Part shown: piece after piece, positions 3,861 through 35,331 of the stretch
How positions within the stretch are numbered: position 1 is the first letter of the stretch
Layout of the letters: each line of letters begins with the position of its first letter
NCBI GenBank assembly: GCA_965246715.1
Contig: CBDFFH010000027.1
Coordinates: forward strand, 145,861 to 209,860
Source: Chamaesiphon sp.
Lineage (GTDB): Bacteria; Cyanobacteriota; Cyanobacteriia; Cyanobacteriales; Chamaesiphonaceae
DNA length: 64,000 nucleotides
Direction of reading: 5' to 3'
Position numbers and translations under genes: made by a program
The notes under the pieces: model-generated
What the model saw: only the letters and a program-made list of their open reading frames with translations
What the model was told of the DNA's origin: nothing
Databases searched by the model: none

Positions 3861-4308
3861 AACTTTTTTGTCCTGATTCACCGCTTAGCAACTCCCCGTG
3901 AGTAGTCGCCAGAGCTAACTCTCCTTGCACCAAATCGGCCTCTAAAGCTGATAATTCTTCAGCTTTGCGCTATAACTCCTCTAGCTCTGGGCTAAGTGAG
4001 ATGACTAATCGATCGCTCATAACTAGATCCAAGACTCCGAAACATAGAATTAAGGTATGTGCGATATACCCAAACTTAGTATGCCCAAAATCTAGATCTG
4101 TAGTTCAATTAAGATGAATCCCGACAATCTACAAATATTGCAATCGGGAGCCTTTTGCCCACTTATTGCCGATCGACAGTTTACGCTCGATTACCTCCAG
4201 TACGCTACGCGAACGCATATATGGTGCTTAATCTAAGGCTGAAGCATGGCTTGACAATTAAGCAAATGCTAAAGTATCCTTTAGTTAAGCATTTGCTTAA
4301 TTATCTCT

Positions 4309-4632
4309 ATGAGTCGATCGACTGCCAGTACCGACATTTTTCAAGCGATCGCCGATCCCACTCGGCGGGCGATTCTGGATCGTTTGCAGTGTGGCGAGCA
4401 GCCTGTCAAGCACCTTGCGGAACCCTTCGCAATGTCTTTACCTGCCATTTCGCAACACTTGCAAGTCTTATCCGCAGCGGGATTAGTCATCCAGCACCGC
4501 CGGGGACGACAGCGCATCTACCGACTCAATCCAGCATCCCTCAAGCCAGTATCAGACTGGTTAAGTCAGTACGAACAGTTTTGGACGGCAAAACTGGATG
4601 CTTTAGGAGAGTATCTGGAGGAACAACTATGA
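4309..4632 (+). CDS. ArsR/SmtB family transcriptional regulator
   Basis: FQAIADPTRRAIL...SLPAISQHLQVL...GRQRIYRL; upstream palindromic TTAAGCAAATGCTAAA / TTAAGCATTTGCTTAA operator-like boxes. Confidence 0.92.
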   Translation: MSRSTASTDIFQAIADPTRRAILDRLQCGEQPVKHLAEPFAMSLPAISQHLQVLSAAGLVIQHRRGRQRIYRLNPASLKPVSDWLSQYEQFWTAKLDALGEYLEEQL

Positions 4633-5582
4633 ACCAGGAGATGGAGCTGGAAACATTTTATCCCCATCCACCGGAGCGCGTGTGGCAGGCATTGACCGAT
4701 CGCCGTGCTTTGAGTGTCTGGATGATGAACAACGATTTTGAAGCTTGCTTGGGGCATCAGTTTCGGTTTGAAAGTTGTCCGCTACCAGGTTTAAAAGTCA
4801 CAATTTACTGCCAAGTGTTAGAAGTGGAAGCACCAAAACGCCTAGTTTATAGCTGGAAAGAGCATCCCTCGGATATAGCGTCACGAGTAATCTGGACATT
4901 ATTTCCAGTCGAAGGCGGCACCCAAGTCCGACTTCAGCATCGAGGTACAGGTGCTGTGTCAATTCCTGTATTTGGGCGGCCAATCGCCGATCGATCTCGT
5001 AGGGAGATTGACTCTCAATTCACATCTGGGACAGCGATCGCACATCCCTTCCAGACAGCCGCTTCTACCTCAAAAGACGGCTTACATCGATATTCGGGAT
5101 TCCCGAACTACCAAATCAACTGGCATTACTGGTTGCACCAAAAATTACCTGGAGTATTAACTATGAGTTCAAATCAACAGCTTCTGCAAAGTTTATACGC
5201 AGCCTTCAATAACCGCGAGCTGGAAACAATCATCTCGGTGATGCACCCAGAGGTGAAATGGGCGAACGGGGTAGAAGGCGGTTTCGTCTATGGACGCGAC
5301 GCGGTGCGCGAATACTGGACTAATCAATATAAAGTTATTCAAGTGCAGCTTGAAACCTTAAAGTTTGAGACGGATGAAAAGAATCGCAATGTCGTTACCG
5401 TTCATCAAATCGTCAGAGATTTACAAGGCAATCTGCTTGCGGATATGACAGTTAAGCAAATCTTTACCATTGAGAATGATGCGTTGGCACAGCCCCTCTG
5501 CAAGAGGATCGTGCTTTATGAAATTGGCGAAACTGAAACCATCCAAGAGATGATTCAACAGACGAAAGCTGCCAACGATTGA
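4629..5582 (+). CDS. SRPBCC (AHSA1-like) domain read in frame into a SnoaL/NTF2-like domain
   Basis: ATG at 4629 overlaps the arsR stop; PPERVWQALTD motif; a second ATG at 5163 with a GGAG RBS starts the SnoaL part (LYAAFNNRE...GRDAVREYW). Confidence 0.8.
   Translation: MNQEMELETFYPHPPERVWQALTDRRALSVWMMNNDFEACLGHQFRFESCPLPGLKVTIYCQVLEVEAPKRLVYSWKEHPSDIASRVIWTLFPVEGGTQVRLQHRGTGAVSIPVFGRPIADRSRREIDSQFTSGTAIAHPFQTAASTSKDGLHRYSGFPNYQINWHYWLHQKLPGVLTMSSNQQLLQSLYAAFNNRELETIISVMHPEVKWANGVEGGFVYGRDAVREYWTNQYKVIQVQLETLKFETDEKNRNVVTVHQIVRDLQGNLLADMTVKQIFTIENDALAQPLCKRIVLYEIGETETIQEMIQQTKAAND
5484..5507 (+). repeat. 24-nt double-hairpin insert (in frame)
   Basis: gcg-TTGGCACAGCCCCTCTGCAAGAGG-atcgt; adds LAQPLCKR to the protein. 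Confidence 0.8.
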
Positions 5583-5621
5583 GCAAAGCCCACACTTCGC
5601 GAACGATGATGTTTCGGCGAT

Positions 5622-5643
5622 TACCTCCGGTAGGCTTCGCCAA
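5622..5643 (-). repeat. 22-nt double-hairpin insert
   Basis: Minus strand: tcg-TTGGCGAAGCCTACCGGAGGTA-atcgc. Confidence 0.85.
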
Positions 5644-5870
5644 CGATCGAGCAGGGATCGATCGAAGCCATAGAAGTCTGTCCACTTCCAGCGTCCGGCT
5701 CTGGTGCCTAAAGTCCGCGCTCCAGCGATCAAAGGCACGACAACATCTATAGAACCCATTTAAGATCTTTTTAGGCGAGGGCTGTTGTCGTTACAATTTT
5801 ATTTACAGATAATATCCCGATTTAGGGTGATATCAAGAAACTTTCTGGATATCATCCCGATTTCCAGGAA

Positions 5871-5906
5871 ATAGGCGGAAAGTTTCCATATAATAAGTAG
5901 TCAGGC
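5871..5906 (+). other. attI-like integron site (relic integron A)
   Basis: ataggcggaaagtttccatataataagtaGTCAGGC closely matches the site beside intI at 22677-22711 on the minus strand. Confidence 0.6.
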
Positions 5907-5956
5907 TAACAAAAACACCCGTCCGCGCGACTACCTACTGATAATGGAGCCAAGAA

Positions 5957-6169
5957 ATGACGACTGAGCCAAATGTGAAGGGGCCTGCTGCTTATTTTCC
6001 GTCAATTGAGAAGAAATACGAAAAGCCAATGAGCTACTGGTTCGCGCTCGTAGATGAACAGAGCGGTCTAAAACACATGGAAATCGTGAACTGGCTAAAG
6101 TCCGAGCATGGAATGGGGCATGGCTACGCAAACGCAGTAGTTGCTTACCACCTTGCCAAGAAGTCATAA
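5957..6169 (+). CDS. DUF4287-like small protein (integron cassette gene)
   Basis: GPAAYFPSIEKKY...KHMEIVNWLKSEHGMGHGYANAVV; lies between the attI-like site and an attC. Confidence 0.85.
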   Translation: MTTEPNVKGPAAYFPSIEKKYEKPMSYWFALVDEQSGLKHMEIVNWLKSEHGMGHGYANAVVAYHLAKKS

Positions 6170-6183
6170 CATGGTGCGGATTT

Positions 6184-6241
6184 GCCTAACTCTTCTTTGC
6201 CGCCGAACGCTTTCGACGGCGGCTGACCTCTGACGTTAGAC
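6184..6241 (+). other. attC site
   Basis: R'' GCCTAAC ... R' GTTAGAC, 58 bp, internal GCCGCCG/CGGCGGC stem; R'' is complementary to the cassette start GT(C)AGGC. Confidence 0.75.
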
Positions 6242-6611
6242 AGACAGATGTTCAGTAGCTTTTAACTTTCACTGTTTGTTCCTATAACTAATTCAAGTTT
6301 GAGATCGCGCATTGCTCAAGAGATCTCAAATAGGTTCTATATATTTAGCTTTGTCAGATGAGGGTGGGCAAATTACTGGTAAGTACTGGTCTAATTCCAA
6401 AATCGATCGACCTTCAGAACTTTCAACAGATATGGATTTGGCCGAACAATTAGTAGCTAAGTGTCATGAGCCAACCAAAATCTAAACACCAAAACCGATC
6501 GCGTTCTTGCTGTCTTGGATGTATTGCTTCGGAGTAATGGACACCAGCCGCTTGAAGTGCGAACCAAAGTGGCTTTGACTCACAAATCCAGTTTCAATAG
6601 CTACACTCTCG

Positions 6612-6636
6612 TTGGCGAAGCCTCTCCTTCAGGAGA
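6612..6636 (+). repeat. 25-nt double-hairpin insert
   Basis: tcg-TTGGCGAAGCCTCTCCTTCAGGAGA-atcga. Confidence 0.85.
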
Positions 6637-6732
6637 ATCGATTTCTTTTTTCTAAGTAGACGTTTTGCCTGTAAAATTCGCAATTGAATTTGATAAGCGT
6701 GCGGCGGCATTCCAAAAGTTCTGCTAAAAGAT

Positions 6733-6754
6733 TACCTCCGGTAGGCTATGCCAA
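6733..6754 (-). repeat. 22-nt double-hairpin insert
   Basis: Minus strand: ccg-TTGGCATAGCCTACCGGAGGTA-atctt; removing it restores HLNRSF. Confidence 0.85.
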
Positions 6755-7323
6755 CGGTTGAGATGAAAGGAACTCAAATTCGCCACCTGTGCCAATTGCT
6801 CTAACGATATTTCTCGATTGTAATTATCTTCTAGATAGTCACGAACGTGATGGACAGGCTGAATTTCCGTTTCTAAATTGGCGAGATCCGGTGGTTTTTC
6901 TGAATAGCGGAGAATTAATTGTGCTAACAAATCTAGGGTCAATGTTTGTTGTTCGAGACCAGAGGTAGATCGTTCGATGGCTTGATGAACTCGAACGAAT
7001 TGGGTATTAAAGTCGCCGTCATGGACTAATGGCAGTGGGAAAAGTGGCAGATCTGTCTCGCGTCCCGCAACTTCTGTCGCCACTTGTTGAAGTAAATCTA
7101 TACCCACCCGTAGCCCGCGAAAAGTGCCGCTCCGCTCGCTAGGAGCATCGACTTGATGCAATTCACCTGGCTGTGTCACAACTAAGGTTTCTGAGGACAC
7201 GCTGTGGATCGTGCCTCGGTAGTTTAACTGCCAGCCGTTACCCTGTCTAAGGTTAAGCTCCAGTTCTTCATGAAAATGGCGGGGCAATGAAAAGCTTTTA
7301 CAAGTATTCTGAAAGAATTCGAT

Positions 7324-7345
7324 TACCTCCGGTAGGCTACGCCAA
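7324..7345 (-). repeat. 22-nt double-hairpin insert
   Basis: Minus strand: tcg-TTGGCGTAGCCTACCGGAGGTA-atcga; removing it restores LPSIEF. Confidence 0.9.
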
Positions 7346-7434
7346 CGATGGCAGGTATCGCGATCGCCAAAGTTTAGGACGTAATAGATCTTCTTTCATC
7401 GGCAGATTTGCTTTCATAAATAGATTTAAGGAAC

Positions 7435-7809
7435 TCAAGTTTGTGCCAGCACAAGTGACTTGTTAAACTGCCGCAGGGGTTCAATTTTGACTGGCAGTTT
7501 CTCTCCTAACCACAGAGCATAATCTGTATGGTCTGCCACTGCATCTCCCGTATTAGGGTGAATGAGAATATCTAAGTTTTCGCGGTGCAGCATTAGCCAA
7601 GGCACGACCTTATCGAACTGATCTAAGGCAAAAGCAGCCTGGTACATCGACTTTGGATGAGGGCCGATCGGTCGATCGTGCCAGCTTCCCAACTGCACTT
7701 CAAAGCGATCGCCTAATCCATACCGCACACGCTCTGCCATCTCGCGGGTCGTGAGGTCGTAATAAATATGGGCATGAAAGCTGGTAATTTCAGCGGTGTG
7801 TTCCAGCAT
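7435..7809 (-). CDS. DOPA 4,5-dioxygenase family protein
   Basis: FHAHIYYD, PIGPHP, ILIHPNTG...DH...WLG motifs. Confidence 0.9.
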   Translation of the reverse strand: MLEHTAEITSFHAHIYYDLTTREMAERVRYGLGDRFEVQLGSWHDRPIGPHPKSMYQAAFALDQFDKVVPWLMLHRENLDILIHPNTGDAVADHTDYALWLGEKLPVKIEPLRQFNKSLVLAQT

Positions 7810-7882
7810 GTATTTTAATTTTGCCGATTTTGGATGTTATGACTTTCTGGTTAAGAACGAACGTGCCTATAACCTAACAAAT

Positions 7883-8731
7883 CTAAACACTGAAACTTAT
7901 CATGTTCTTGCTGTCTCGAACGTATTGCATCGGCGTAACGAAAACGAGCCGCTTGAAGTGCGTTCCAAAGTGGCTTTGACTCGCAAATCCGGTGGCAATG
8001 GCTACTTTTTCGATCGATAGCTCCTGTCTGAGTAGCCTTTTTGCTTGCAATATTCGCACTTGAATTTGATAAGCGTGCGGTGGCATTCCAAATATTTGGC
8101 GAAACGAGCGATTGAGATGAAACGAACTCAAATCGGCAATCTGTGCTAGTTGCTCTAGCGAGATCTCTCGACTGTAATGGTCTTCGAGATACGATCGAAC
8201 GCGCTCGATGGGCTGACGTTCTTGTCCTAATCTAACCAGACAAGGTGGATTGTCAGCACAGCGCAGAATCAATCGTGCTACCAAATCCTGGATCGTAGTT
8301 TGTTGTTCGAGTTGAGAACCCGATTGCGATATGGATTGATGAACTCGCACGATTTGGTGAGTGAGATCGCGGTCGTGGACTAACGGCTTCGGAAAAAATG
8401 GCACCGCTGTTTTGTGTCCAGCAATTTCTAGAGCAACTTGTTGAAGTAAATCTAGATCGATCCGTAGCCCTCGAAATGTACAGTCTCGCTCGCTCATCCA
8501 ATTAGCATGATGGACTTCGCCAGGTTGTGTCACTACTAAGGTATCTGACGGAACGCTATACATCGCGCCGCGATAGTTAAACTGCCACCCGTCACCTTGT
8601 CTAATGACAAGCTCCAGTTCCTCATGAAAATGGCGGGGCAATGAAGCGGCTTTAGAAACACTATGCACCAACTCGATCGATGGCAGGTAGTGCGATCTCC
8701 AAACTCTAATGTGTGAGTGATTTACTTTCAT
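7883..8731 (-). CDS. AraC-family transcriptional regulator (intact copy)
   Basis: N-terminal cupin (PRHFHEE) and C-terminal double HTH (GFASQSHFGTHFKR). Confidence 0.93.
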   Translation of the reverse strand: MKVNHSHIRVWRSHYLPSIELVHSVSKAASLPRHFHEELELVIRQGDGWQFNYRGAMYSVPSDTLVVTQPGEVHHANWMSERDCTFRGLRIDLDLLQQVALEIAGHKTAVPFFPKPLVHDRDLTHQIVRVHQSISQSGSQLEQQTTIQDLVARLILRCADNPPCLVRLGQERQPIERVRSYLEDHYSREISLEQLAQIADLSSFHLNRSFRQIFGMPPHAYQIQVRILQAKRLLRQELSIEKVAIATGFASQSHFGTHFKRLVFVTPMQYVRDSKNMISFSV

Positions 8732-8836
8732 AGGTGATGTTTCTAGTCGGATCGCTCGTCAGTGCCAGGGCGGACTGCTGCGACATCGCGGTAATTTACA
8801 GAGGATGCTGTCGCTGGCTTGGAGTAGGGCAGGGTT

Positions 8837-10282
8837 TTACTCGACAATTTGAGCTTTTGCCCCTCGGCAGTCTGTTTCCCTCACTACAAATAAGGCAACC
8901 AGTAGTCCGACGATCGCGAAACCAACACTACCGATCTCTGCGGCTCCAAATCCTGCGGTCAATGCGATTCGCCCCGCATCTGCCACTCCATCCAACTGAG
9001 CGAGCCTTGCCTGCGTTCGAGCCGTTGAGACGGCAATCAGGATGGCGAGTCCCAACGCCGCTCCAATCTGCTGTGAGGTGTTGAGTAATCCAGATGCCAT
9101 CCCTTGTTCGCGATCGCTAATGCCCGCCGTCGCCGCGATCGTCACCGAAACCAGAGTCATCACGAAGCCCAAGCCAATGATGACCGTACCGGGCAACAAA
9201 TCCCGCACGAAGTTGCCCTGCACCGGAATGCGGCTCAGGTGTAAGAGTCCGACTACTACCAGCGTTATGCTGCCTGTCAGCGTCGTTTTGATGCCAAATC
9301 GGGTCGCACTTTGGGACGCGATCGGGGCAGCAACCATCGAGGCGATCGCATGGGGCAAAAATGCCAGTCCGGTTTGCAGAGCCGAATAGTGCAGCACCTG
9401 CTGCATGTACAGGGTCAAAATGAAAATCGTCGAGCCGATTGCGGCGTTCATGAGTAGTCCAATCAGATTTGCCCCAGTTAATGTTTGCAAGCGAAAGATA
9501 TCCAGTGACACGAGCGGATCTTGAGCATGTGCCTCAATCCAAACAAATGCTGCCAGTAGTACCAGCGCGATCGCAAATAAAATCAACGTTGGCGCAGAAC
9601 TCCAGCCCGATCCACTCGCTTGCTCTAACGCGTAAACCAGCACCACCAGTCCAGATGTCACCGTCACTGCCCCCAGGAGATCGATTTTATGGCCGCTCGA
9701 TCGCGCTTGGCTTTCTGGCAGCAGGATTGGTGTGAAGAAAAGGGTCAACAAGCCGAGTGGCACATTCACAAACATCACCCATCGCCAGCTCAAGGCATCC
9801 GTAAGAATGCCACCGAGTAATACACCCACCGCAAACCCACCCGCCGAGATCGCCCCCCAAACACTCAAAGCACGATTCCGAGCTGCTCCCTCAGCAAAAG
9901 TGGTAGTCAGAATCGAGAGGGCTGCTGGAGAAACGATCGCCGCTCCCAGTCCTTGCACGGCACGAGCCACAACCAGGATCGCTTGAGACTGAGCTAGACC
10001 CCCGATTAAAGAAGCGATTGTAAACAGTCCCAACCCGATCGTCAAGACGCGTCGCCGCCCAAACAAATCTGCCGCTCTACCGCCCAGCAGCAAAAAGCCG
10101 CCAAACGCGAGTGAATAAGCACTGACTATCCACTGTAAATTTTGCTGCGAGAAGCCCAAATCACGCTGGATGGAGTGGAGTGCCACGTTGACGATCGAGA
10201 AGTCGAGTACCATCATGAACCGAGCCGCACAGAGCAGCAGCAGGATCGGCCACGAGCGAGAGTTCGGTGTAGTTTGAGTCAT
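8837..10282 (-). CDS. DHA2/EmrB-type 14-TM MFS transporter
   Basis: LDFSIVNVAL, GGRAADLFGRRR, WRWVMFVNVP. Confidence 0.92.
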   Translation of the reverse strand: MTQTTPNSRSWPILLLLCAARFMMVLDFSIVNVALHSIQRDLGFSQQNLQWIVSAYSLAFGGFLLLGGRAADLFGRRRVLTIGLGLFTIASLIGGLAQSQAILVVARAVQGLGAAIVSPAALSILTTTFAEGAARNRALSVWGAISAGGFAVGVLLGGILTDALSWRWVMFVNVPLGLLTLFFTPILLPESQARSSGHKIDLLGAVTVTSGLVVLVYALEQASGSGWSSAPTLILFAIALVLLAAFVWIEAHAQDPLVSLDIFRLQTLTGANLIGLLMNAAIGSTIFILTLYMQQVLHYSALQTGLAFLPHAIASMVAAPIASQSATRFGIKTTLTGSITLVVVGLLHLSRIPVQGNFVRDLLPGTVIIGLGFVMTLVSVTIAATAGISDREQGMASGLLNTSQQIGAALGLAILIAVSTARTQARLAQLDGVADAGRIALTAGFGAAEIGSVGFAIVGLLVALFVVRETDCRGAKAQIVE

Positions 10283-10396
10283 TTGAGATTACTAATTTGG
10301 CAACTCCTCGGAACGTTGATTTACAAAGCATGAACGGTCGAATTTAGAACTCGAAATCTCAAGCCTGGTTGGAGGTTCGGGCGATCGAAATCTCAG

Positions 10397-11137
10397 TTAC
10401 ATGTTTGCGCCGCCATTGGCACAAATATCTTGTCCGGTTAACCACCGCCCTTCTTCGCTTACCAAAAATGCCACCACGGCTGCGATGTCTTGGGGCGTTC
10501 CGACGCGATTGAAGGGAGAACTGGCAGCGGCTCGCTGCTGCACTTCTGGCGGCAAATTGCCAAACATTCCAGGAATTGTGGGACCAGGCGTGACGGTATT
10601 GACGGTAATGCCGCGAGATCCAACTTCCTTTGCCATCACGACGGTAAACAGCTTGATGGCTGCCTTACTCGCTGTATAAAGTGCCATCCCCGATTCAGGA
10701 TAAAAGGTGGTCGAAGAGGAAATATTAACGATTCTGCCACCGTCATTCATGTGTTTAGAGGCTTCCTGCAACGCAAACAAAACGCCGCGAACATTCAGGT
10801 CAAATACTTTGTCGTACTCGTCTTCAGTCACATCCGAGATCGCGCCCATAAAACTCATGCCAGCATTGTTAACCAGAATATCGATGCGACCAAAGTGCTG
10901 CATCGTCTCAGCGAACAGACGGCGAATATCCGCCACCTGACTCAGACTGGCTTGGATTGCCACGCTCTTACTACCCGCTGCGGCAATCGCCTCTACAACT
11001 TCATTGGCTTCCCGTTCACTGCCAGAATAGTTGATGACCACCGTTGCCCCGTCGCGTCCCAACTGTTCCGCAATGCCTCGCCCGATGCCGCGCGACGAGC
11101 CAGTCACGATCGCCACTTTTCCAGTTAAAGGTGCCAT
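10397..11137 (-). CDS. Short-chain dehydrogenase/reductase
   Basis: TGSSRGIG, NNAG and YTASK motifs. Confidence 0.93.
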   Translation of the reverse strand: MAPLTGKVAIVTGSSRGIGRGIAEQLGRDGATVVINYSGSEREANEVVEAIAAAGSKSVAIQASLSQVADIRRLFAETMQHFGRIDILVNNAGMSFMGAISDVTEDEYDKVFDLNVRGVLFALQEASKHMNDGGRIVNISSSTTFYPESGMALYTASKAAIKLFTVVMAKEVGSRGITVNTVTPGPTIPGMFGNLPPEVQQRAAASSPFNRVGTPQDIAAVVAFLVSEEGRWLTGQDICANGGANM

Positions 11138-11218
11138 AAATGATTGTCCTCTATGTTAATTATTCAGCCGCTTGCACGAACGGCGATCGATCGGATGATT
11201 GACAAAGATCGCCAGAAA

Positions 11219-12112
11219 TTAAATTTTTGAAAGCACATCAATCGCGCTCGTCCACCGGACATCGGGATAGCGGTCATTATCCAGGGGTGTATTCTGGACG
11301 CTGAACATACTGTATAAATACTGCTTGAGTTGCCAGCTAGAATATACTTCTTTTTCTCCTTCTGGGTGAGCAGCGCGATCTTGTTTATTTAAGGTAGAGA
11401 AATCTACCAGACTGCCCATTGGAATGAGCTTGAATTCTGTCTTTTTAACTTCTTTGCCGATTGCCACCAATTCGTTCGGGCTAATTTGGAAACTGGCAAT
11501 TCGCAGAATTTTTGGAGTTGAGACATCGATCGCGGCAGCGGCAGTATAATCTGCCGTATTATCCATCGTTGTAAAGTCGATTTTCCAGTCGGGATTATCG
11601 CCCCAATAGCCGACGCTGTGATTTTTTACATCATAAAGCGGCGTGTTAGAGTTCAAAATTTCATTGGCAAAAGCTCCGTTCAAGATCGAAGTGGCTGCGA
11701 TCGAGGATTTGTCTAGATATTGATGAAACTCTTTTCGGAGATCGAAATTTCGATTTTCACCTGTGGGCAGTTTGGTAAAGTCAGAAGCAAAATCCGAGGG
11801 AATAAAGCGCGGTACACCTGCTGAGATTGCTGCATCCAGCAGTTTGATTTGCGAGTCAACAATTGTCTCGTGCAGTCCTGCCAAAGCCGAAACCACACAC
11901 GATGTGCCTTGACAGGCTTGTTTGAGTTCCTCGACATCCGACAGATCGACAGTAATTACTTTCGCACCGAGTGCGGTTAGTTTGGGGATTTTTTCCGGTT
12001 CGCTACCGTTGCGGACGATGGCGCGAACTTCTGCCCCTCTGGCTATCAATGCTTTAATGATTCGTCCGCCGAGATTACCCGTTCCACCTGCTACTAAAAT
12101 TGGCTGATTCAT
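11219..12112 (-). CDS. NmrA/isoflavone reductase-like NAD(P)-binding protein
   Basis: GGTGNLG Rossmann motif and RFIPSDF. Confidence 0.88.
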   Translation of the reverse strand: MNQPILVAGGTGNLGGRIIKALIARGAEVRAIVRNGSEPEKIPKLTALGAKVITVDLSDVEELKQACQGTSCVVSALAGLHETIVDSQIKLLDAAISAGVPRFIPSDFASDFTKLPTGENRNFDLRKEFHQYLDKSSIAATSILNGAFANEILNSNTPLYDVKNHSVGYWGDNPDWKIDFTTMDNTADYTAAAAIDVSTPKILRIASFQISPNELVAIGKEVKKTEFKLIPMGSLVDFSTLNKQDRAAHPEGEKEVYSSWQLKQYLYSMFSVQNTPLDNDRYPDVRWTSAIDVLSKI

Positions 12113-12465
12113 GATGTTTTGCACGTTTAAGTTTAAGGCTATATAATCGAACCTGTCTTCAGCTTAATGAACTTAATCGGCGAAATCTATCACGTTCTTG
12201 CTGTCTTGAATATATTGCTTAGGAGTGATACAAATCAGTCGCTTGAAATGTAAACCAAAGTGGCTTTGCGAGTCAAAGCCAGTTTCTGAGACGACTCGAT
12301 CGATCGACCAGTCTTGACTGAGGAAACGTTTTGGTCGGTGAGATCGCGATCGTGGACTAACGGCAGCGGGAAAAATGGCAGATCTGTTTCGCGTCCAGCA
12401 ACTTCGATCGCCACTTGTTGAAGTAAATCTAAACCGATCCGCAGTCCTCTAAAAGTGTAATCTCG

Positions 12466-12492
12466 TTGGCGGAGGCTCTTGCCTGAAGAGTT
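12466..12492 (+). repeat. 27-nt double-hairpin insert
   Basis: tcg-TTGGCGGAGGCTCTTGCCTGAAGAGTT-atcag; removing it restores ADSTDRDY. Confidence 0.75.
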
Positions 12493-12681
12493 ATCAGTCG
12501 AATCCGCCTGATGTGCTTCGCCCTGTTGTGTTATCACTAATGTATTTGCTGGCACGTTGTGAGTCGTGCCTCTGTAATTAAACTGCCAGCCGTTACCCTG
12601 CTTGATATTTAGCTCCAGTTCTTCGTGAAAATGACGGGGCAATGAATGAGCACTTTGACCAGCACTATGCAATAACTCGAT

Positions 12682-12703
12682 TACCTCCGGTAGGCTACGC
12701 CAA
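12682..12703 (-). repeat. 22-nt double-hairpin insert
   Basis: Identical to 7324-7345 and at the homologous codon (PS^IE). Confidence 0.9.
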
Positions 12704-13123
12704 CGAGGGTAGATAATGCGATCGCCAGATTCGAGTACGTGACTGCTGTGCTTTCATCGGTTATTTTAGGTACTAGTGGGAGGGCAAGGGGAACGCATCA
12801 AAATGGGATCTATTTCGATCGAATTTACCCATAAAGATTTACCTGCTTTTCGATCTCGATCGCAAATTTAATTAGGGTACTGCGAATTGCAATATGATAA
12901 TTAGCTATATTTGTGCGTATCTTGTGTCATTAAAACTCTTGATACTTATCTGTAATTTGTAAAACTACAATCTAACTGTAAACCAAGTTAGATCTAAAAT
13001 CACTCTGTCGAAAGTACTGGTTTTATATTTACAAGCAAACATAAAACTAAACACACAAATTATTGCAGATGGCCAAAAATATTTATTGAAACCCCGCCAA
13101 AAATTTAGGAAACTCCTGTCGTG

Positions 13124-13846
13124 TTATCCGCGAGATTGAGGAATAGGATTGCGTCTGGTGTACCAAGCGTGCATCAGCAGATTTTGAAAGAATAGTACAG
13201 GTGAGTCGAATCCTCCTACTGCAATAATTGAGGCAACTTCTGACGGTGGTAGCACAGCCACATCGCGACCATAGGCGGCACTAATTTTAGCCCGAACCAT
13301 TTCAATTGGCATCCCAGCAGATGCCATTATCCGCAGCCAAATATCCAGAAGTTCTGGATAGGTTAAAGCAGATCGATCGTAAGCAAGATCGGCATTAATC
13401 ATATACCCCTGAGAGCGCAGTCTTACAGCAATCTGATGAAAAAAGTTGCGCCGTTCCTCTGGTTGTAATAAGAACTGAGACACAAACAGGCAAGTTGCTG
13501 CATCAAATGTGTCCGATCCAGGTAGTGAATCAAGATAACCTTCGTAAAAAGTACAGCGGGAAGTGATGCCAATATCTTCGACCCGCTGGCGACAAATATC
13601 CAGCATCGGTGCCGCAGGCTCTACCAATGTGAACCGCCATTGAGGAAAGGCTTGGGCAAGATCGATTACTTCTGAACCAGTGCCGACACCAACGCAGAGG
13701 ATCTGGGCATCGCTTGGAAGTTCGGACAATATCCTACGCATGAGAAAATTCAGTGCATCGCGTGTCGGCGCAAACACGGCATTCCCTTTGTCATAGGAAG
13801 AAGCCATTTGCCGATCGAACACAATAGCTGATTCTTGATTTGTCAT
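13124..13846 (-). CDS. Class I SAM-dependent methyltransferase
   Basis: ILCVGVGTG motif I and FDAATC; likely start MTNQES. Confidence 0.88.
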   Translation of the reverse strand: MTNQESAIVFDRQMASSYDKGNAVFAPTRDALNFLMRRILSELPSDAQILCVGVGTGSEVIDLAQAFPQWRFTLVEPAAPMLDICRQRVEDIGITSRCTFYEGYLDSLPGSDTFDAATCLFVSQFLLQPEERRNFFHQIAVRLRSQGYMINADLAYDRSALTYPELLDIWLRIMASAGMPIEMVRAKISAAYGRDVAVLPPSEVASIIAVGGFDSPVLFFQNLLMHAWYTRRNPIPQSRG

Positions 13847-13937
13847 AATAAAACTAATAGTCAATCTAGTTTTACCATAGCGACTAGATCGACTATGGGC
13901 TACCAAATTATTGCTCAGTTTGTCAAAAACTTGCCCA

Positions 13938-14056
13938 TCAACCTTTCCGATACATGTTAGGTGTGCCTGTAGTAAATCGACAAAACGTGGCGGCAAAGTG
14001 GCTTTGACTCGCAAATCCAAGCTGATAACTAATATCGCTAATGGGTAATTGCGTCA
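13938..14056 (-). pseudogene. AraC C-terminal HTH remnant
   Basis: QLPISDISYQLGFASQSHFAATF...TPNMYRKG*. Confidence 0.7.
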
Positions 14057-14265: not shown

Positions 14266-14389
14266 TTGACAAACCAGTCATAACAGGCTAAAAGTAAGAC
14301 AAGCCCATAAAATAGCCCACGTAGTTATTTTAAATGGCTGTAAGCCTTGTATGACAAGGCTTGTGACTCTATTAGCACTACTTTGGGGT
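14266..14389 (+). repeat. Left copy of a ~124-bp inverted repeat with att core and arm-like sites
   Basis: Ungapped inverted match to 15702-15825; contains AGCCCATAAAATAGCCCA and the core CACTACTTTGGGGT. Confidence 0.9.
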
Positions 14390-15522
14390 TGTAGATGGCT
14401 TGTTCCAATATCAACAAACAAACATTCACTGCCGATCGCGTGAGCGTAAGTAGATAACATCATGCGCTTATCATGTCCAGTCTGTTCTGCCAGTGCGATG
14501 TAATTAGCACCGTTATGAAGCGCATGAGAGATGGCAGTGTGTCGAAGATTGTATGGTGAGCGATATTCGATCTGGCAGCTTTCAAGTATGGTTTTCCATG
14601 CTCTTCTTCTAAACGTATGGTCATTGATGGGCAAACCTTTGGGGCTGGGAAATACCAGATCGTCCGGCTGTGGCGATAGTCGATTGAATCTGGCTACCAA
14701 CATCGCTCTCACATTCGGCGGTAACTGGATAGTGCGATGCTTTCCCGTTTTGGTGCCCTTTTGGTTTTGATGGCCGCGAGAGATGGATTCCCCGATCCAT
14801 ACTGTGCTGTAGTCCGAACCTAGATGCTGCCATCGCAACCCTGCAACTTCGCCAAATCTGCAAGCAGTAGAGGCGAGAAAGATGATGAACTCAGTGTAGT
14901 GAGAGTAATATGGATCGATCGCGAACGCTGAGATAATCGCTTGGAGTTCGGCAATAGTGAAGGGTTTCTTCTGTTGCCGATTTGGGGCTTTGTGACCCCT
15001 GGTAATCGTAGTGGTTAAACAACACTCCCAGGGATTAGATTCGGCAACGTGGTACTTTCCCTTAGCCCAATCCCAGCAAGCTTTTAAATAGTACAGATAT
15101 GATTTGACTGTCTTACTTGATGCCGATTCCAACCATTTAGTGACCAGATCCTTTGCTACAGGCTCAGTCACTTTCTCGGCAGGTTTATCACCGAGTAACC
15201 GATCGAGTTTGGACAGGATCGCTTTAAGTCTTAGCCCCGATCCGTGAGTTATTCCCCGCTCTTGTTGATGGAAGGGAATATATTTCTCAAATAGTTCGAC
15301 TGCACTAATAGCCGTGGGATCGTTCCCAAGCTTGCGAGGTTTGTATCTGAATAGTGTAGTATCGAAGTTTCCGTAGTTGATGTCTTTCTCGATCTGTGCC
15401 ATCTTCATCTTGGCAGCAGACATCCCCACCGGATTATTGTGTTTGGGCAGACTGAAGCTATAGGGCTTGCCATCGTGCGAAAACCTGATAAGTAGGCTAT
15501 TGCCGCGTTTTTCAATGTGCAT
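14278..15522 (-). CDS. Tyrosine recombinase/integrase with an N-terminal Arm-type DNA-binding domain
   Basis: TACRFGE (R), YNLRH (HxxR variant), TGH and Y; N-terminal beta-rich LLIRFSHDGKPY; the C-terminal tail runs through the att repeat. Confidence 0.92.
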   Translation of the reverse strand: MHIEKRGNSLLIRFSHDGKPYSFSLPKHNNPVGMSAAKMKMAQIEKDINYGNFDTTLFRYKPRKLGNDPTAISAVELFEKYIPFHQQERGITHGSGLRLKAILSKLDRLLGDKPAEKVTEPVAKDLVTKWLESASSKTVKSYLYYLKACWDWAKGKYHVAESNPWECCLTTTITRGHKAPNRQQKKPFTIAELQAIISAFAIDPYYSHYTEFIIFLASTACRFGEVAGLRWQHLGSDYSTVWIGESISRGHQNQKGTKTGKHRTIQLPPNVRAMLVARFNRLSPQPDDLVFPSPKGLPINDHTFRRRAWKTILESCQIEYRSPYNLRHTAISHALHNGANYIALAEQTGHDKRMMLSTYAHAIGSECLFVDIGTSHLQPQSSANRVTSLVIQGLQPFKITTWAILWACLTFSLL

Positions 15523-15666
15523 AAAAACAGTGGGTGAAATGGTGGGCGACGTACCAGCCAAACCACGCAAAACAGCACATTATTTTGAGTGCATAGACAC
15601 GAAAAAGCGGCTGTTAAGAAATGGTTGGTTTCCTAAAAGCTTTGCCAGCAATATGTTTCAATCAAA

Positions 15667-15715
15667 TCGGAACGAGAGGATTTGAACCTCCGACCCCTAC
15701 TACCCCAAAGTAGTG
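15667..15715 (-). tRNA. 3' fragment of tRNA-Pro(GGG), serving as an att site; not a full gene
   Basis: Anticodon arm CTACT-TTGGGGT-AGTAG, T-arm GGAGGTTCAAATCCTCT and acceptor 3' strand CGTTCCGA; the D-arm and 5' half are absent. Confidence 0.85.
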
Positions 15716-15825
15716 TAGCTAAAGATATAAGCCTTATCTTCCAAGACTTCCAGCCATTAAAAATAACTACATGGGCTATTTTATGGGCTAGTCTCATTTT
15801 CAGCCTGTTATAGTTGGTTTGTCAA
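15702..15825 (-). repeat. Right copy of the ~124-bp inverted repeat
   Basis: Inverted counterpart of 14266-14389. Confidence 0.9.
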
Positions 15826-16112: not shown

Positions 16113-16682
16113 ATGGTTGTTACTCTCGATCCGCAAACAGCGCAACACCTCGAAGCTTATCAAGCTCTCAGTTCTACCGAGCGCGAACTTGTGACCCAAG
16201 CCCTCGAACGAGTTGCCAGTAAAGAAACATCAGATCCCGCGATCGAGACTCTAGCAGAATCGATCGCTGGCAGATCCTTTACCCGCACCGAACGCATCCA
16301 ACTAGAAATAGAAACCCTCAGCAGACATTTCCAGCACCGCCGCCAACTGCTCGATACAGCTATTAGTGCTAGCCATGTGGCACAGATCTTGGGCACTTCT
16401 CGCCAAACCCCTCACGATCGGGTTGGCAGTCAATCCCTAATCGCTATTAAAGAAAACGGTAAATTCTGCTTTCCAGTTTGGCAGTTCGACCCGACAGGAT
16501 CGGATGGGGTTATCGATGGCTTGCCAGATATCCTCAAGGCTTTGCAAGTATCCGACTATAGCAAGCTCAATTGGCTGACTCGCCCCAACCCCTATTTAGA
16601 CAACCTCACCCCAATTGAGGCTCTGAAGCAGGGAGAAAAAGAGCGTGTCTTAGCCGAAGCTAAGGCGGTAGGAGCGATCTGA
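16113..16682 (+). CDS. Antitoxin of a RES-type TA pair (MbcA/ParS/Xre-like C-terminus)
   Basis: FPVWQFD, WLTRPNPYLDNLTPIEALK; coupled to the RES gene. Confidence 0.8.
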   Translation: MVVTLDPQTAQHLEAYQALSSTERELVTQALERVASKETSDPAIETLAESIAGRSFTRTERIQLEIETLSRHFQHRRQLLDTAISASHVAQILGTSRQTPHDRVGSQSLIAIKENGKFCFPVWQFDPTGSDGVIDGLPDILKALQVSDYSKLNWLTRPNPYLDNLTPIEALKQGEKERVLAEAKAVGAI

Positions 16683-17311
16683 TGGTTCGGATCGCTCTGC
16701 CACCTCCCTCAAAACCTCCTTCCCCCTCGTTCCGTACCCTTGCGGCTGGTACTAGCATCCTGCGGATTTTCGATCCTACCCGCTACGGCACTACCGCTCT
16801 AACTTTCCGTTATTACGGGCCGATCGGTCGATTCGACCACCAACGTCCCTTGCCTAAAGGTGGATGTACTGAGGATTTAAAACGCGGTATCTCCTACGCT
16901 GGGTTGACTCTCTCTTGCTGTCTGGTTGAGTGTTTTGGCGATAGCGGAGTTATCGAACTCAAAGGACAACAAATCGGTCGCATCCAGATCGAGCGCGAGC
17001 TTAACCTTCTAGACTTGAGAGGGAATGGAGCGATGAGGGCTGGCTCCGTCGCGGCTTTGGCTAAAATTGCCGATCGGCAGATCTCTCAAGAATGGTCGCG
17101 CTACTTTTACGAACGAACGGAATTGTATGGGCTAATAGATGGTATTAGCTACTTCAACGCTCACAATGATGAGGAAGCATTTGCTTTGTACGAACGAGCG
17201 CAATCTGCCTTGGTTTGCCCAGATTCTCAAATTCTATCCTTAAATCATTCCAGTCTTCGTCCTGCCATTCAACAAGCATCTCTTGCCAACCATTTGGACT
17301 TTCTACCGTAA
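16682..17311 (+). CDS. RES domain toxin (NAD+ phosphorylase-like)
   Basis: GRFDH, YAG...CLVECF, LLDL, DGISY, ALYER. Confidence 0.85.
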   Translation: MVRIALPPPSKPPSPSFRTLAAGTSILRIFDPTRYGTTALTFRYYGPIGRFDHQRPLPKGGCTEDLKRGISYAGLTLSCCLVECFGDSGVIELKGQQIGRIQIERELNLLDLRGNGAMRAGSVAALAKIADRQISQEWSRYFYERTELYGLIDGISYFNAHNDEEAFALYERAQSALVCPDSQILSLNHSSLRPAIQQASLANHLDFLP

Positions 17312-17344
17312 CGAGCGAATTAGCATCGATCGGATGGCGTGGTA

Positions 17345-17465
17345 TTCATGTCCTTTGACAAGTACTAGTATTTTTGTTCTATAATAAGTTGGAAATCTAA
17401 TTGCTTGCGATCGAGATGAATACGTTTACCCTCCATAACGCGAAATCCCAGTTCTCCAAATTATA
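17345..17465 (+). repeat. Duplicated promoter plus phd 5' remnant (copy of ~35260-35380)
   Basis: Shares tactagtatttttgttctataataagtt...aaatcccagttctccaaatta with the other copy; contains a LexA-box-like AGTATTTTTGTTCT. Confidence 0.85.
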
Positions 17466-17550
17466 GTTATTAGCAGTAATTAGATCGGTTTGGCTCGAAC
17501 GATCGATCTTCACTCAATCGGTTAGCTGAATCCTCAGTTCACCTAAATTT

Positions 17551-19728
17551 ATGCGAAATCTGTTGATTGTTGAATCTGCTGGCAAAATCAAAAAGCTTAG
17601 GAGTATCCTCGGCTCTGACTGGGATGTCAAGGCATCGATCGGGCATATTCGCCAACTTGCTAACGATGGGGATGGTGCGTTAGGCTTCGACCTGGGTGCA
17701 GATACGATCGACTGTCGCTACATTCCCCGCGACGAAAGAGCCAAACAAACGATTGCCGGACTCATTGCCGCAGCCAAGCAAGCGGATCGAGTCTTCATCG
17801 CCTCAGATCCAGATCGAGAAGGTGAAGTAATTGGCTGGCATATCGCCCAGGTATTGAAACTCAAACAGCCCCAGCGGGTTGTCTATCAGGAGATTACTGA
17901 GTCCGCAGTCAAAAAAGCGATCGCCAGCCCTCGCTCCCTCGATATGGCTCTAGTAGAGGCGGGTAGGTGTCGCGATTGTCTAGATAAATTGGTCGGCTAC
18001 AAAGGCTCGCCCCTCATCTGGCGACTCAATAACGGGGCGAAAAGCGTCGGTCGTGTACAGTCCGCCACCCTGCACCTAGTCTGCCAACGAGAACGAGAAA
18101 TTCAATCCTTCATACCACAAGATTATTGGTCGGTATTTGTAGACTATGCCGAAGGATTCAGAGCCTTTTACAACGGAACTGCTCAAGTTGTCTCACCAAT
18201 AGCAGAGGAGGAAACTAGCGACGATGCTGGAGCTTCCGAAAAAGTCGCTGAATCGACGCGGGTATTGAGTCAGGCTGAAGCCGAAAGATTGGTGGAAATT
18301 GGAAAATCTCACCCCCATCAAGTTAAGACGATCGAAGGTAAACTCGCGCCCAAAAAGCCTCCCGCTCCATTCATCACCTCGTCACTGCAACAAGCCGCAG
18401 GTTCGCGCTTAAAGTTCAGCCCCGAACATACGATGTCAGTCGCCCAGAAACTCTACGAGGCTGGGTTGATTACCTACATGCGGACTGATTCGGTCGAACT
18501 CAGTCAGGACTTTTGCACCGCTGCACGGGAATGGCTGCTCGCTCACGATAAAGATAATGTACCTACAAAAGTTGCCAAACAGCGCAGTTCCAAAGACGCT
18601 CAGGAAGCCCACGAAGCGGTTAGACCGACCGATCTAACAAAAGCTTCAAGCGACCTCAAACAGCAGCTTTCCGAAGATGAATTCGCATTATACGTGATGA
18701 TTTGGATGCGATCGATCGCGTCTCAGTGCAAACCCGCACAGATTCGCAAAACCACGATCGTCACTCAGTCTGGTGAGATTCAGTGGCAAGCCAGAGGGCA
18801 AATGCTGGAATTTGCAGGCTATGCCAAATATTGGAAGGATATCAGCGGCGATGCCGTATTGCCTAGCTTGCAACCCCAGCAACCGCTTACCGCAGCAAAC
18901 GTCAGTCACGAGCAGAAGCAAACCCAACCACCGCCACGCTATTCCGAGCCAAAACTCGTCCAACTGATGGAACGTAAGGGTATCGGTCGTCCTTCTACTT
19001 ACGCGCCTACTATTGCCACGCTCAAGCAACGTAATTATGTCGAACTAGTTAAGAGTAAAGTGCAGCCGACGACTGTTGGTTTGCAAGTGGATGATTTTCT
19101 GATGCAAGCTTTACCAGAGTTGATTCAATCGGAATTTACGGCGGGGATGGAAACCCAACTCGATGCAATTTCCAAGGGGCAGCAAGAATGGCAAAGTTAT
19201 CTAATTGAGTGGAACCGGAGCTATTTCGCGCCAGCGTTGAGTAAAGCTACTAAGAATCTACCAGAACAGGATTATGGATCGTTCCAGGGTAAGGAGCTGG
19301 AGAAATCGCGCTCGAAATGTCCGACTTGTAGCAAGCCAATGTCTAAAGTACCGACCAAGAAGGTGAAGAAGGGCTATTTTCTCAAGTGTGAGGATGGCTG
19401 TAAAGATACTGAGGGCAAAGGGTTAGTAATGTTTTGGTCGGATCGATCGAATGAATGGCAAATTCCGCAACCTAAAACCGAGCAGTCATCTCCAGCGAAA
19501 CTTACCGAACATCCTTGTCCAGTTTGCCAGAAGCCGCTGGAAGAATACAGCTACACGAAGGATGGACAAGCCAAGTCGATGTTACGGTGTTCGGATGCAG
19601 CAGCTCGAACCAAGCCCAAACACAAGGATGTCGCTTATTTTAGGGGGAAAGAGGGGGTGTGGTGGAGTCCAAAATTGGGTAATCTCGGTGCGGATGCTGC
19701 TAGATCGAGCCAGGTAAAAGCACCATAG
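17551..19728 (+). CDS. topA: Type IA DNA topoisomerase (plasmid/ICE type) with C-terminal Zn fingers
   Basis: LLIVES, SDPDREGE, GRVQS, ITYMRTDS, EAHEAVRPT, GIGRPSTY. Confidence 0.95.
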   Translation: MRNLLIVESAGKIKKLRSILGSDWDVKASIGHIRQLANDGDGALGFDLGADTIDCRYIPRDERAKQTIAGLIAAAKQADRVFIASDPDREGEVIGWHIAQVLKLKQPQRVVYQEITESAVKKAIASPRSLDMALVEAGRCRDCLDKLVGYKGSPLIWRLNNGAKSVGRVQSATLHLVCQREREIQSFIPQDYWSVFVDYAEGFRAFYNGTAQVVSPIAEEETSDDAGASEKVAESTRVLSQAEAERLVEIGKSHPHQVKTIEGKLAPKKPPAPFITSSLQQAAGSRLKFSPEHTMSVAQKLYEAGLITYMRTDSVELSQDFCTAAREWLLAHDKDNVPTKVAKQRSSKDAQEAHEAVRPTDLTKASSDLKQQLSEDEFALYVMIWMRSIASQCKPAQIRKTTIVTQSGEIQWQARGQMLEFAGYAKYWKDISGDAVLPSLQPQQPLTAANVSHEQKQTQPPPRYSEPKLVQLMERKGIGRPSTYAPTIATLKQRNYVELVKSKVQPTTVGLQVDDFLMQALPELIQSEFTAGMETQLDAISKGQQEWQSYLIEWNRSYFAPALSKATKNLPEQDYGSFQGKELEKSRSKCPTCSKPMSKVPTKKVKKGYFLKCEDGCKDTEGKGLVMFWSDRSNEWQIPQPKTEQSSPAKLTEHPCPVCQKPLEEYSYTKDGQAKSMLRCSDAAARTKPKHKDVAYFRGKEGVWWSPKLGNLGADAARSSQVKAP

Positions 19729-26420: not shown

Positions 26421-29400
26421 ATGAACGAACAGCGGCAACAGGATTATTTTGAATTAGTAAATGCTTTGTTGTCATGTGAAAGTGGCAAAGAAACGAGGTA
26501 TTAGCCAGCCAGCCAGAATTGGTGGATGAGGGGCTGGTAACAACGCTCTTAGCTTACGCCCAAATGTTGGAGCAAAACAATGACCCCAAAGCCATACCTA
26601 CCAGGCAATGGCTGACAAACTTTGCTAACCAACTCGCCCAAGTATTGGGACTAAATAGCCCACCTCCGCCTGAAGAATCGGACTCTAGACTCAATTTCCT
26701 GATGAGTGTTCTTCAGGCTGTTGCTGATATTCAAGGTGCTGATAGTCAAGGAAATCCCCGAATAGTAGACTTCCTATTGCGAGCTAATCTTTCCTTGCTG
26801 GATGAAGCACTTATCCCCATCCTAACCACATGGTATCGTCAATCTAGGCTTACCGAGGTAGATGAGGATGGTAAAAATTTTCTTGCAGAAGTTGTGTTTG
26901 TATTTGCCAATCTAATTCGACAATTTCCCTTGGGAAGTCGGTTAATCAATCTGGAAATCGCCATCGCCTGTTATCACTTGGCTCTGGAGGTATATACCCG
27001 CGCTGCCTATTCCGCAGCTTGGGCAAGAACGCAATTGAATCTGGCTATTGCTTATACAGCTCGAATTCGGGGTGAGCGGGCGGAGAATCTGGAAATTGCT
27101 ATCGCCTATTATCGCTCGGCTTTGGAGGTATTTACCCGCGCTGCCTATCCCGAAGATTGGGCAGCTACTCAGAATAGTCTGGCTATTGCTTATACAGATC
27201 GAATTCGGGGCGAGCGGGCAGCTAACCTGGAGGAAGCGATCGCTTATTCTCGCTTGGCTTTGGAGGTAAGAACTCGCGCTGCCTATCCCGAAGATTGGGC
27301 AGCTACTCAGAATAATCTGGCTAATGCTTATCAGACTCGAATTCGGGGCGAGCGGGCAGCTAACCTGGAGGAAGCGATCGCTTGTTATCGCTTGGCTTTG
27401 GAGGTAAGAACTCGCGCTGCCTATCCCCAATATTGGGCAAGAACGCAAATGAATCTGGCTATTGCTTATACAGATCGGATTCGGGGCGAGCGGGCAGCTA
27501 ATTTGGAGGAAGCGATCGCCTGTTATCGCTTGGCTCTGGAGGTAAGAACCCGCACTGCTTATCCCGAAGATTGGGCAATAACACAAATAAATCTGGCTAA
27601 TGCTTATAGAGAGAGAATTCGGGGCGAATGGGCGGCGAATTTGGAGGAAGCGATCGCCTGTCATCGCTTAGCTCTGGAGGTATTTACCCGCACTGCTTAT
27701 CCCGATATGTGGGCAAGGACGCAAATGAATCTGGCTAATGCTTATCAGTCTCGAATTAGGGGCGAGCGGGCAGCGAATCTGGAGGAAGCGATCGCCTGTC
27801 ATCGCTTGGCTCTAGAGGTATTTACCCACGCTGCCTATCCCGAACAGTGGGCAAGGACGCAAATGAATCTGGCTAATGCTTATCAGTCTCGAATTAGGGG
27901 CGAGCGGGCAGCGAATCTGGAGGAAGCGATTGCCTGTTATCGCTTGGCTCTGGAGGTAAGAACCCGCGCAGCTTATCCCGAAATGTGGTCAAGGACTCAA
28001 AATAATCTAGGGATGACATTAATCGATCGAGAGCGTTTTCCAGAGGCGATCGAGTGTTTTCAGTCCGCCCTAGAAATCTACACTCCGCAATCATTCCCGA
28101 TCGATTGTTTCCGAACAGCCCGCAACCTTGGCAATCTCTTATTTAACCAGGGTAATTGGCAACAGGCGATCGATGCCTACGATCTAGCAATTCAATCCGT
28201 CGAAACCTCCTGTAGTTGGTCAACCAGCGAAGACGAACGCCAGCGTGTGATCGGCGAAGCTATCACCGTCTACCAAAACACCATTCAGGCATACATCAAC
28301 CTCGGACAAATCGACAAAGCCATTACCACCAGCGAACGCGCCCGCAGTCGTCAACTCGTTGACTTCATGCAAACCAACGATCTTTATGCCGATGGCGAAA
28401 TCCCTCCCGAAGTGCGAGAACTCCTCGCTAAATATCAAGACATCAACAACCACATCCGAGATTACCAAAACACCAACTCCAGCAATAACCCCGAACAGCC
28501 CGAACCAAATCGAGCCAGCCGCAATAGTGAAACCTTCGCCGCCGATACCGCTGCGATTCTCGCCCTCACCGCTGAAAAAGACCGCATCTGGCAACAGATC
28601 CGCAAAAAAGACCACGAACTCGCCGGACAAATCCAAGTAGCCCCGATCGATCTCCCAACGATCCAATCCCTCATCTCCACCCCCCACACCGCCATCCTCA
28701 GCTTCTACACCACCGACAACGACACCCACATCTTCATCATTGCCCGCAACAGCGAACCCCAAATCCACACCTGCCAGAACTTCCAAGAATGGCTGGGGAA
28801 AACATGGTCGGGTAACTACTCTATTAGCAAAAACATCGATCGATTCAATGCGGAAATCAAGCAAGCCAAACCAGACGCTCTACCAGGGATAGAGGCTGAA
28901 TTAGCTGAATATATTGCCAAACTTAAAACTGATGGACTCTGGAGTGAAAAAAGCTGGCGAGATCTGATGCCAGATACTTCGATCGAGATTTCCCAGCGAT
29001 TGGAATTAGACGCACTAGTTGCCAAACTCCCCAACATCACCGAACTAATTATCATCCCCCACCTCTACCTCCACCAAATCCCCTTTGCCGTACTGCCCCT
29101 AGTTGGTGGCTACCTCGGCGATCGCTTCACCATCCGCTACGCTCCCAGTTGCCAAATCCTCAAATACTGCACCGATCGAACCGCGATCGTCTCACCCCAA
29201 TACGGTACGATCGAAGATGCCGATGGCACACTCCCTGGAGCCGGATTTGAAGGTCATCAAATCGCCGAACTCTTCCAAATTCAGCCAGCATATCGACTGC
29301 GCGGTAAAACCCAAGCCTCCATTCAAAACTACCAACGACTCCTCACCCAAGTCACCAACATCCACTCCAGCCACCACGCATCCTTCAACCTCTCCAACCC

Positions 29401-29980
29401 CCTCGAATCCCACCTCAAACTCGCCGATGGAGTAGTCAGCCTCGGCGATCTCCTCACCAACCGCTATCCCCACCTCAACGAAGTCTTCCTCTCCTGCTGC
29501 GAAACCAACCTCGGTACTACCAACTTCACCGACGATCTCCTCACCCTCGCTACCGCCTTCCTCTGTTCTGGTGCCCGCAGTATCATCAGCACCCTGTGGA
29601 AAGTAGACGATCTCGCTACCTGTATCTTCTCAGTCCTATATTATCGACTCCGGCGCGATGGACTCGATCGATCCACTGCCATCCAACAAGCCCAATTTCA
29701 ACTCCGCAACCTCCACAAAGAGCAAATCAAGCCTTTCCAATCTGAATTTAAAAACTATTACAATGCTCTAAAAGCAAAAAAAGAGCTACTCGAAGTTTGT
29801 GCATTATCTAACGAAGATGTACCTCAATCGATCGATCTTAATTGCGAAGAAATAGAACAAATACTAGAAGGAACAACATTTTTTCGGATGAGCCTTCGGA
29901 GTCTTCTAAACGGCACAGAAGAATACCCTTTCGCCGATCCTTACTACTGGGCAGGTTTTATCTGTCAAGGTTTAGCTTGA
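26421..29980 (+). CDS. TPR-repeat CHAT (caspase-like) protease; frameshift near 26492
   Basis: 40-aa TPR repeats, IIIPHLYLHQIPF, His in IHSSHHA, Cys in FLSCCET, STLWKV, PYYWAGF; upstream ATG (MNEQRQQDY) at 26421. Confidence 0.9.
26950..28010 (+). repeat. Tandem 120-bp coding repeats (~9 units)
   Basis: Recurring NLEEAIACYRLALEVRTRAAYPExWAxTQxNLAxAYxxRIRGERAA. Confidence 0.92.
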
Positions 29981-35203: not shown

Positions 35204-35331
35204 TCTAATAGGGGTTGAAACAGAGTGCGTATCCTAATGCAGTTCCTAAGACTCTCGATGTCCATATCTTTAACAAAATACTAGTATTTTTGTTCTATAA
35301 TAAGTTTGAAATCTAATTTCTTGCGATCGTG

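Follow-up and report, generated by a model that had tools for sequence, protein, structure and literature searches.

Facing P ends of two tRNA-Pro ICEs across the integrase gene of a third element in Chamaesiphon: a probable one-off product of off-target recombination

In a 64,000-nucleotide stretch of a Chamaesiphon sp. assembly (hereafter the window), the P ends of two tRNA-Pro ICEs appear to face each other across the integrase gene of a third element. We consider it highly probable that this arrangement arose through a one-off off-target recombination event, and we predict that it is a static scar and not a switch. For the more specific proposal that the event was an integration, with an incoming attP circle, the chances seem about even.

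The inverted repeat and the integrase gene within it

Positions 14266-14389 of the window match the reverse complement of 15702-15825 at 102 of 124 positions without gaps (111/136 if the alignment is extended), in agreement with an earlier note on this DNA that had described an ungapped, imperfect inverted repeat of about 124 bp. The second-longest inverted repeat among those listed for the window measures 36 nt, and the match therefore lies far beyond chance. The tandem AGCCCA motifs that the same note had seen in each copy are present as AGCCCA-ATAAAAT-AGCCCA at 14302-14319 and 15789-15772, and both copies terminate in a 14-bp core of the same letters. Its proposal that this core is a tRNA-Pro anticodon arm is borne out by the match to an intact tRNA-Pro(GGG) gene, which we located outside the window in the same assembly (C9:16761-16834); within the 64 kb no intact tRNA was found. 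The left core (14376-14389, plus strand) comprises the anticodon stem and the 7-nt loop (14383-14389) and is identical to the core of the C9 tRNA. Between the two cores lie the integrase gene, a P' arm and a 3' part of tRNA-Pro(GGG) on the minus strand (15715-15667), which includes the right core (15715-15702) and is identical to the C9 tRNA over all 49 nt. The core is thus an anticodon stem-loop and the element carries a tRNA 3' half, as is characteristic of tRNA targeting.

The enclosed gene (14278-15522, minus strand) encodes a predicted tyrosine integrase of 414 aa, read from an ATG at 15522, with Pfam matches to Arm-DNA-bind_2 (PF12167, 24.1 bits against a cut-off of 22) and Phage_integrase (PF00589, 67.6 bits); its arm-binding domain belongs to the class that we call type B. 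The predicted catalytic residues R222, K258, Y324, R327, H350 and Y359, assigned by motif from the translation, are all present. The first catalytic His of lambda-type integrases is replaced here by Tyr (Y324), a substitution that occurs in some cyanobacterial integrases. Upstream lies the P' arm (attL-type) of the integrase's own element (15523-15666, minus strand), which carries a type B arm repeat at 15546-15525 and is 96% identical to the P' arm following the intact tRNA-Pro in C9. The gene's own downstream neighbours are gone; a C9 integrase gene, 95% identical to the enclosed one, is followed by a TrwC relaxase. Lambda-type heterobivalent integrases combine an N-terminal arm-binding domain with C-terminal core-binding and catalytic domains (PMC2951348, bioRxiv 2023.11.06.565760), and the enclosed integrase resembles them in having arm-binding and catalytic domains and a 7-nt overlap that corresponds to the anticodon loop. 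Judged from its sequence, it is a tRNA-targeting heterobivalent tyrosine integrase of an ICE, all four features tested for this assignment having been found.

The integrase frame has no stop before the left core, as had been reported; it continues stop-free through the core and terminates at 14278, and its final 34 residues are supplied by the core and the left arm. Where related integrases stop can be seen from the homologue in G015:C171 (372 of 381 residues identical), which ends after SHLQPPI. The earlier note was also correct that the flipped state would have an alternative C-terminal tail. The frame of this tail is likewise open, as far as the same stop, in three of eight other type A arms to which no integrase is fused (C5, L041, L047), so that a similar tail after a flip would follow from arm homology alone, with no need for selection.

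Arm types and the origin of the outer arms

A short tandem repeat stands directly before the integrase start codon and recurs in the P arm. We typed this arm repeat in 46 distinct core-to-int loci (from L001-L189 and from the assembly studied here, G000). On a quick tree of 52 residues of the N-terminal arm-binding domain, with motif classes set after inspection of the table and with non-independent relatives among its 46 rows, the arm repeat followed the domain, needing 10 changes for 10 states (nine types and one unclassified) against a mean of 28 and a minimum of 25 after shuffling. The tRNA target needed 14 changes for four states on the same tree. We regard this covariation as a strong description, not a formal test. 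At least nine arm-repeat types are present, and the tRNA target (Pro, Val, Thr, Ala) is reassorted among them; in this reassortment of arm type and tRNA target, the cyanobacterial family is unlike lambda-type systems.

Whole elements lying on one contig had matching arm types in seven of seven cases with both motifs readable, namely G020 Thr, G020 Val, G001 Thr, G003 Ala, G011 Thr (with a degenerate P repeat), G036 Pro and the Val element on C5 of the assembly studied here; a same-contig pair in G003:C198, whose P' motif was unreadable, was left out of this count. At P-core-P' junctions with both motifs readable, the arm types were mismatched in 16 of 16 cases, and these junctions therefore appear to be joints of stacked elements and not attP sites. 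A 13-nt match to the Val core inside the G020 element, with neither a tRNA half nor an arm repeat adjoining, was attributed to chance.

In the window, the two outer arms belong to type A, and type B is represented by the enclosed integrase together with its P' arm; the same type A/type B joint is found at tRNA-Val in G020. We had considered the right copy as a true attP and dropped this reading after arm typing, given its type A P arm and type B P' arm. Its order (P arm, core, tRNA 3' half, P' arm, int), in which the two arms derive from different elements, is that of a tandem junction. Across the Pro-core sites of this genome, three of three P arms are type A and three of three P' arms are type B, a pattern that may reflect hybrid elements, unassembled ends, or an arm specificity looser than the covariation implies. 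The specificity that we infer is drawn from covariation among related genomes. Given the pattern at the Pro cores, the type B integrase could tolerate type A arms in this genome, which counts against our preferred reading.

The left P arm (14266-14375, plus strand) appears to be an attR-type end; the cargo and backbone of the ICE that it terminates lie to the left. It is identical at 103 of 110 positions to an arm in G020, at 102 to the arm in C5 and at 88 to the right arm; together with its outer flank it matches G005:C142 at 92% over 177 nt, there on a tRNA-Val core. The right P arm (15716-15825, minus strand), a putative attR-type end belonging to a second ICE, which extends rightwards, is identical at 107 of 110 positions to G005:C204, where the same end is 97.7% identical over 1.8 kb and is followed by a tRNA 3' half and then by no recognisable arm. 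Because each arm is closer to arms in other genomes (103-107 of 110) than to its partner, separate origins are indicated. On sequence grounds, then, the two repeat copies are the P ends of two different ICEs and not a matched pair belonging to the enclosed integrase.

Conjugation backbones (relaxase, coupling protein, VirB3-like; Pfam) point at both arms and are collinear with a 95-kb element in G020. The left backbone (C27:116291-123962) is oriented towards the left arm and starts abruptly at an IS5 copy (C27:115372-116294), on the other side of which stands an oppositely oriented backbone. The segment expected next beyond the IS5 occurs in two copies in the assembly, neither of which adjoins that IS5, and is absent from the continuation of the left backbone. 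The terminal genes of the right ICE, annotated with Pfam, are an Xre/RES toxin-antitoxin-like pair and a DNA topoisomerase (16113-19728, plus strand), and the topA region also adjoins P arms in elements of G015 and G020. The right backbone (35199-56440, plus strand) includes genes for VirB3-like, ParA-like and type IV coupling proteins, the last at 48262-50278.

This coupling protein gene is split into two ORFs by a frameshift or a sequence error, and the copy at C27:9684-11720 is a single ORF of 679 aa. A 118-bp direct repeat (86%; 17347-17464 and 35263-35380) flanks about 18 kb of cargo that is missing from G005:C204, and in C27 this repeat also stands at the end of every copy of the backbone. 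The cargo of the left ICE (4188-14019) holds repeated AraC-like, NmrA, SDR, MFS and methyltransferase cassettes with common intergenic repeats, and a TPR-CHAT protein of 1153 aa with 138-bp tandem repeats is encoded at 26519-29980. Two further type A P arms, with tRNA 3' halves (Pro and Val) and truncated integrases of other arm types, occur at C5:216776-218018 and C37:52042-53044. The 3' end of C24 is 98.75% identical to C27:164637-165036 in the topA region, and its 5' end overlaps the 3' end of C5; C24 is either one more copy of the element or a different path through the assembly. No contig-end overlaps connected C27 to C9 or C5, and the chromosomal B' flank of tRNA-Pro was not located in this assembly, synteny with relatives being poor.

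The left junction and the order of events

Immediately beyond the left core, positions 14390-14400 (plus strand) form the X' half of a putative pseudo-attB and lie in what remains, behind the int body, of the coding sequence of a paralogous integrase. The same letters run uninterrupted in relatives: the empty site is found in five of their loci (L001, L005, L024, L048, L053) and also at C9:15424 of the assembly studied here, and in loci of the G015:C171 type the DNA behind the int body continues into this remnant. Contigs of runs X16, X17, X18 and X6 depart from the window sequence at 14387 and continue into the uninterrupted site. Two tRNA-Pro integrase genes with large internal deletions, L048 (G011:C3:72013-72528) and L051 (G012:C449), retain the att arm and the pseudo-site.

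On the opposite strand, the remnant resembles the tRNA core at four of five positions of the right stem and five of seven of the loop, the final three bases among them. The window has the P arm and the entire loop fused to the right half of that site, which places the crossover, in all probability, in those final three bases (14387-14389), where the anticodon loop ends on its 3' side. This join would have cost int its stop codon and added the 34 extra residues. Tyrosine integrases that target tRNA genes have been described as cutting at the borders of the anticodon loop, which constitutes the 7-nt overlap (PMC8371274). The same point bears on whether the left junction is an assembly chimera, for which the contamination of the assembly (2.69%), its many repeated ICE parts and the lack of an independent contig bridging the junction might speak. 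We nevertheless consider a chimera very improbable, as the joined sequences have only about 8 bases in common and meet at the loop edge, where such integrases cut.

We propose the following history. The tandem junction of the right copy, as its anatomy shows, formed at tRNA-Pro as one ICE inserted in front of another and left a type A P arm, core and tRNA 3' half ahead of a type B P' arm and type B int. Behind that int, on the opposite strand, the integrase remnant offered a pseudo-attB sharing most of the right stem and the last three loop bases with the tRNA core. A type A ICE may then have recombined at this site, the likeliest substrate being its incoming attP circle; the product would be P-core-X', with the int stop lost. 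Such an ICE could have recognised the site because the catalytic halves of type A and type B Pro integrases hardly differ (59/60 and 60/60 over alignment columns 241-360). Finally, the remote end of this ICE, which would have held both the reciprocal junction and the type A integrase, may have been lost in an IS5-bounded rearrangement or may be unassembled; the abrupt start of the left backbone at the IS5 copy makes this a likely reason for their absence.

A matching opposite att junction, which the earlier note had named as the sign of an independent island, was sought and is absent from this assembly (55 contigs) and from 39 family genomes. With this reciprocal junction absent and the backbone cut at IS5, secondary-site integration is something we infer, and the catalyst is likewise presumed, as neither a type A integrase nor a type A P' arm is present in the assembly. 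The limited agreement between pseudo-site and tRNA core, at only five of the seven overlap positions, also counts against off-target integration, since identity of the overlap is normally required for recombination (bioRxiv 2023.11.06.565760). By a crude site score, the pseudo-site reaches 18/23 and 14 other sites in the genome reach 17-18/23. That the site used nonetheless lies 1.3 kb from the true core favours a local event.

This proximity is one reason to weigh the main rival, a local inversion that came first, which we regard as possible but rather unlikely. The core of the tandem junction would have recombined in cis with the pseudo-site and flipped int once, and a second type A ICE would then have integrated at the regenerated core. 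The predicted starting state has a counterpart in C5, where an arm like the left one precedes a type B P' arm and int. The inversion would, however, require a hybrid site to recombine with an attB, which is neither of the standard substrate pairs, attP x attB and attL x attR (PMC4111918). Moreover, the assembly lacks the X-core junction in which, on this account, the right ICE should terminate at its far end, and the outer flank of the left arm matches a different element (that in G005:C142). Like off-target integration, local inversion would be a one-off history, with the events in the other order, and the assembly cannot separate the two orders.

Invertibility of the cassette and ICE stacking

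Inverted cores around an integrase gene invite the idea of inversion, and the earlier note offered two interpretations: an invertible integrase switch, or a related element integrated at a secondary site in the int 3' end. The second fits our results, with the site lying in the paralogous-integrase remnant that is uninterrupted in relatives; the first is not supported by them. In lambda-type systems, the N-terminal domain must bind arm sites for the intasome to assemble (PMC2951348). Since the arms here appear non-cognate and the substrate pair would be non-standard, the enclosed integrase would not be expected to invert the cassette.

A selected, programmed switch that toggles int expression or the C-terminal tail would account for the two inverted cores, and a sigma-70-like -35/-10 match is present in the right arm only (15825-15796). 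The promoter scan of the region gave five matches against 3.9 expected from shuffles and hence no enrichment. Covariation assigns the arms to type A and the integrase to type B, the arms appear to have come from separate sources, only int would move, and the tails, whose frame is open in unfused arms too, differ little. The layout is also unique among the genomes searched: the left-junction pattern was found in one of 39 family genomes (many of them incomplete), namely the one studied here, and one of 26 integrase loci with enough flank had, behind int, a long copy of the upstream att region in inverted orientation, six loci having been excluded for short flanks and two others having matches of only 15-17 nt. 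We therefore hold a programmed switch to be highly unlikely. Known switches such as fim (FimB/FimE) and hin have a dedicated recombinase, conserved near-identical sites and a regulated output. The present locus shares with them a recombinase gene near or within inverted sites; unlike them, it gave no sign of a dedicated recombinase, of conserved near-identical sites or of a regulated output.

Flipping might instead occur reversibly as a by-product, if type A and type B integrases together, or type B alone, took the right hybrid site as attP and the left as attB, with the pair regenerated each time. The full 7-nt overlap is now common to both sites, the cores are identical and the right stem has one mismatch; the predicted catalytic residues are intact, the two integrase types agree closely in their catalytic half, and a crossover in the core would leave no sequence trace. 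Against this, the assembly contains no type A integrase and a single orientation of the cassette, and nothing but int would move. We consider such flipping improbable. Among contigs of eight public runs, none spanned the cassette or the left junction; run X15 yielded an 'opposite strands' joint of 36 letters. Metagenome scans returned no stretch with the left junction and are uninformative, since the uninterrupted int-end control also returned none.

Tandem arrays, entry at secondary sites and hybrids have been described for ICEs and IMEs such as SXT/R391, ICEBs1, ICESt1/3 and SGI1 (PMC5812530, PMC2297512), and the present locus resembles these in stacking at one primary site and in the use of a look-alike secondary site. 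It differs from them in that the secondary site is the remnant of a neighbouring element's integrase gene, inverted and 1.3 kb from the primary core, and in that two P ends enclose one int with the reciprocal end missing. A literature search, which covered few subscription papers and no supplements, returned no published description of this layout, of the family or of arm-domain shuffling. As a long shot, the accident may have created a self-regenerating invertible cassette that flips only when another ICE, of type A, contributes its integrase to a mixed intasome. In a wider sense, the arm codes of these cyanobacterial ICEs, at least nine in number and interchangeable, would let different elements stack at one tRNA without mutual excision. 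Were the cassette to flip with mixed integrases, cross-talk between stacked ICEs would be demonstrated.

The feature is real and most likely a one-off product of known ICE behaviour, and the arm-code pattern is the more useful lead. As a well-resolved case of probable off-target ICE recombination, the locus illustrates that inverted att repeats around an integrase need not mean a switch. In this family, the integrase N-terminus apparently reveals the type of arm repeat, and every tandem junction observed joins different arm types. The family may thus offer a naturally occurring series of integrase/att pairs that are possibly orthogonal, and a way to test directly how islands stack at one tRNA.
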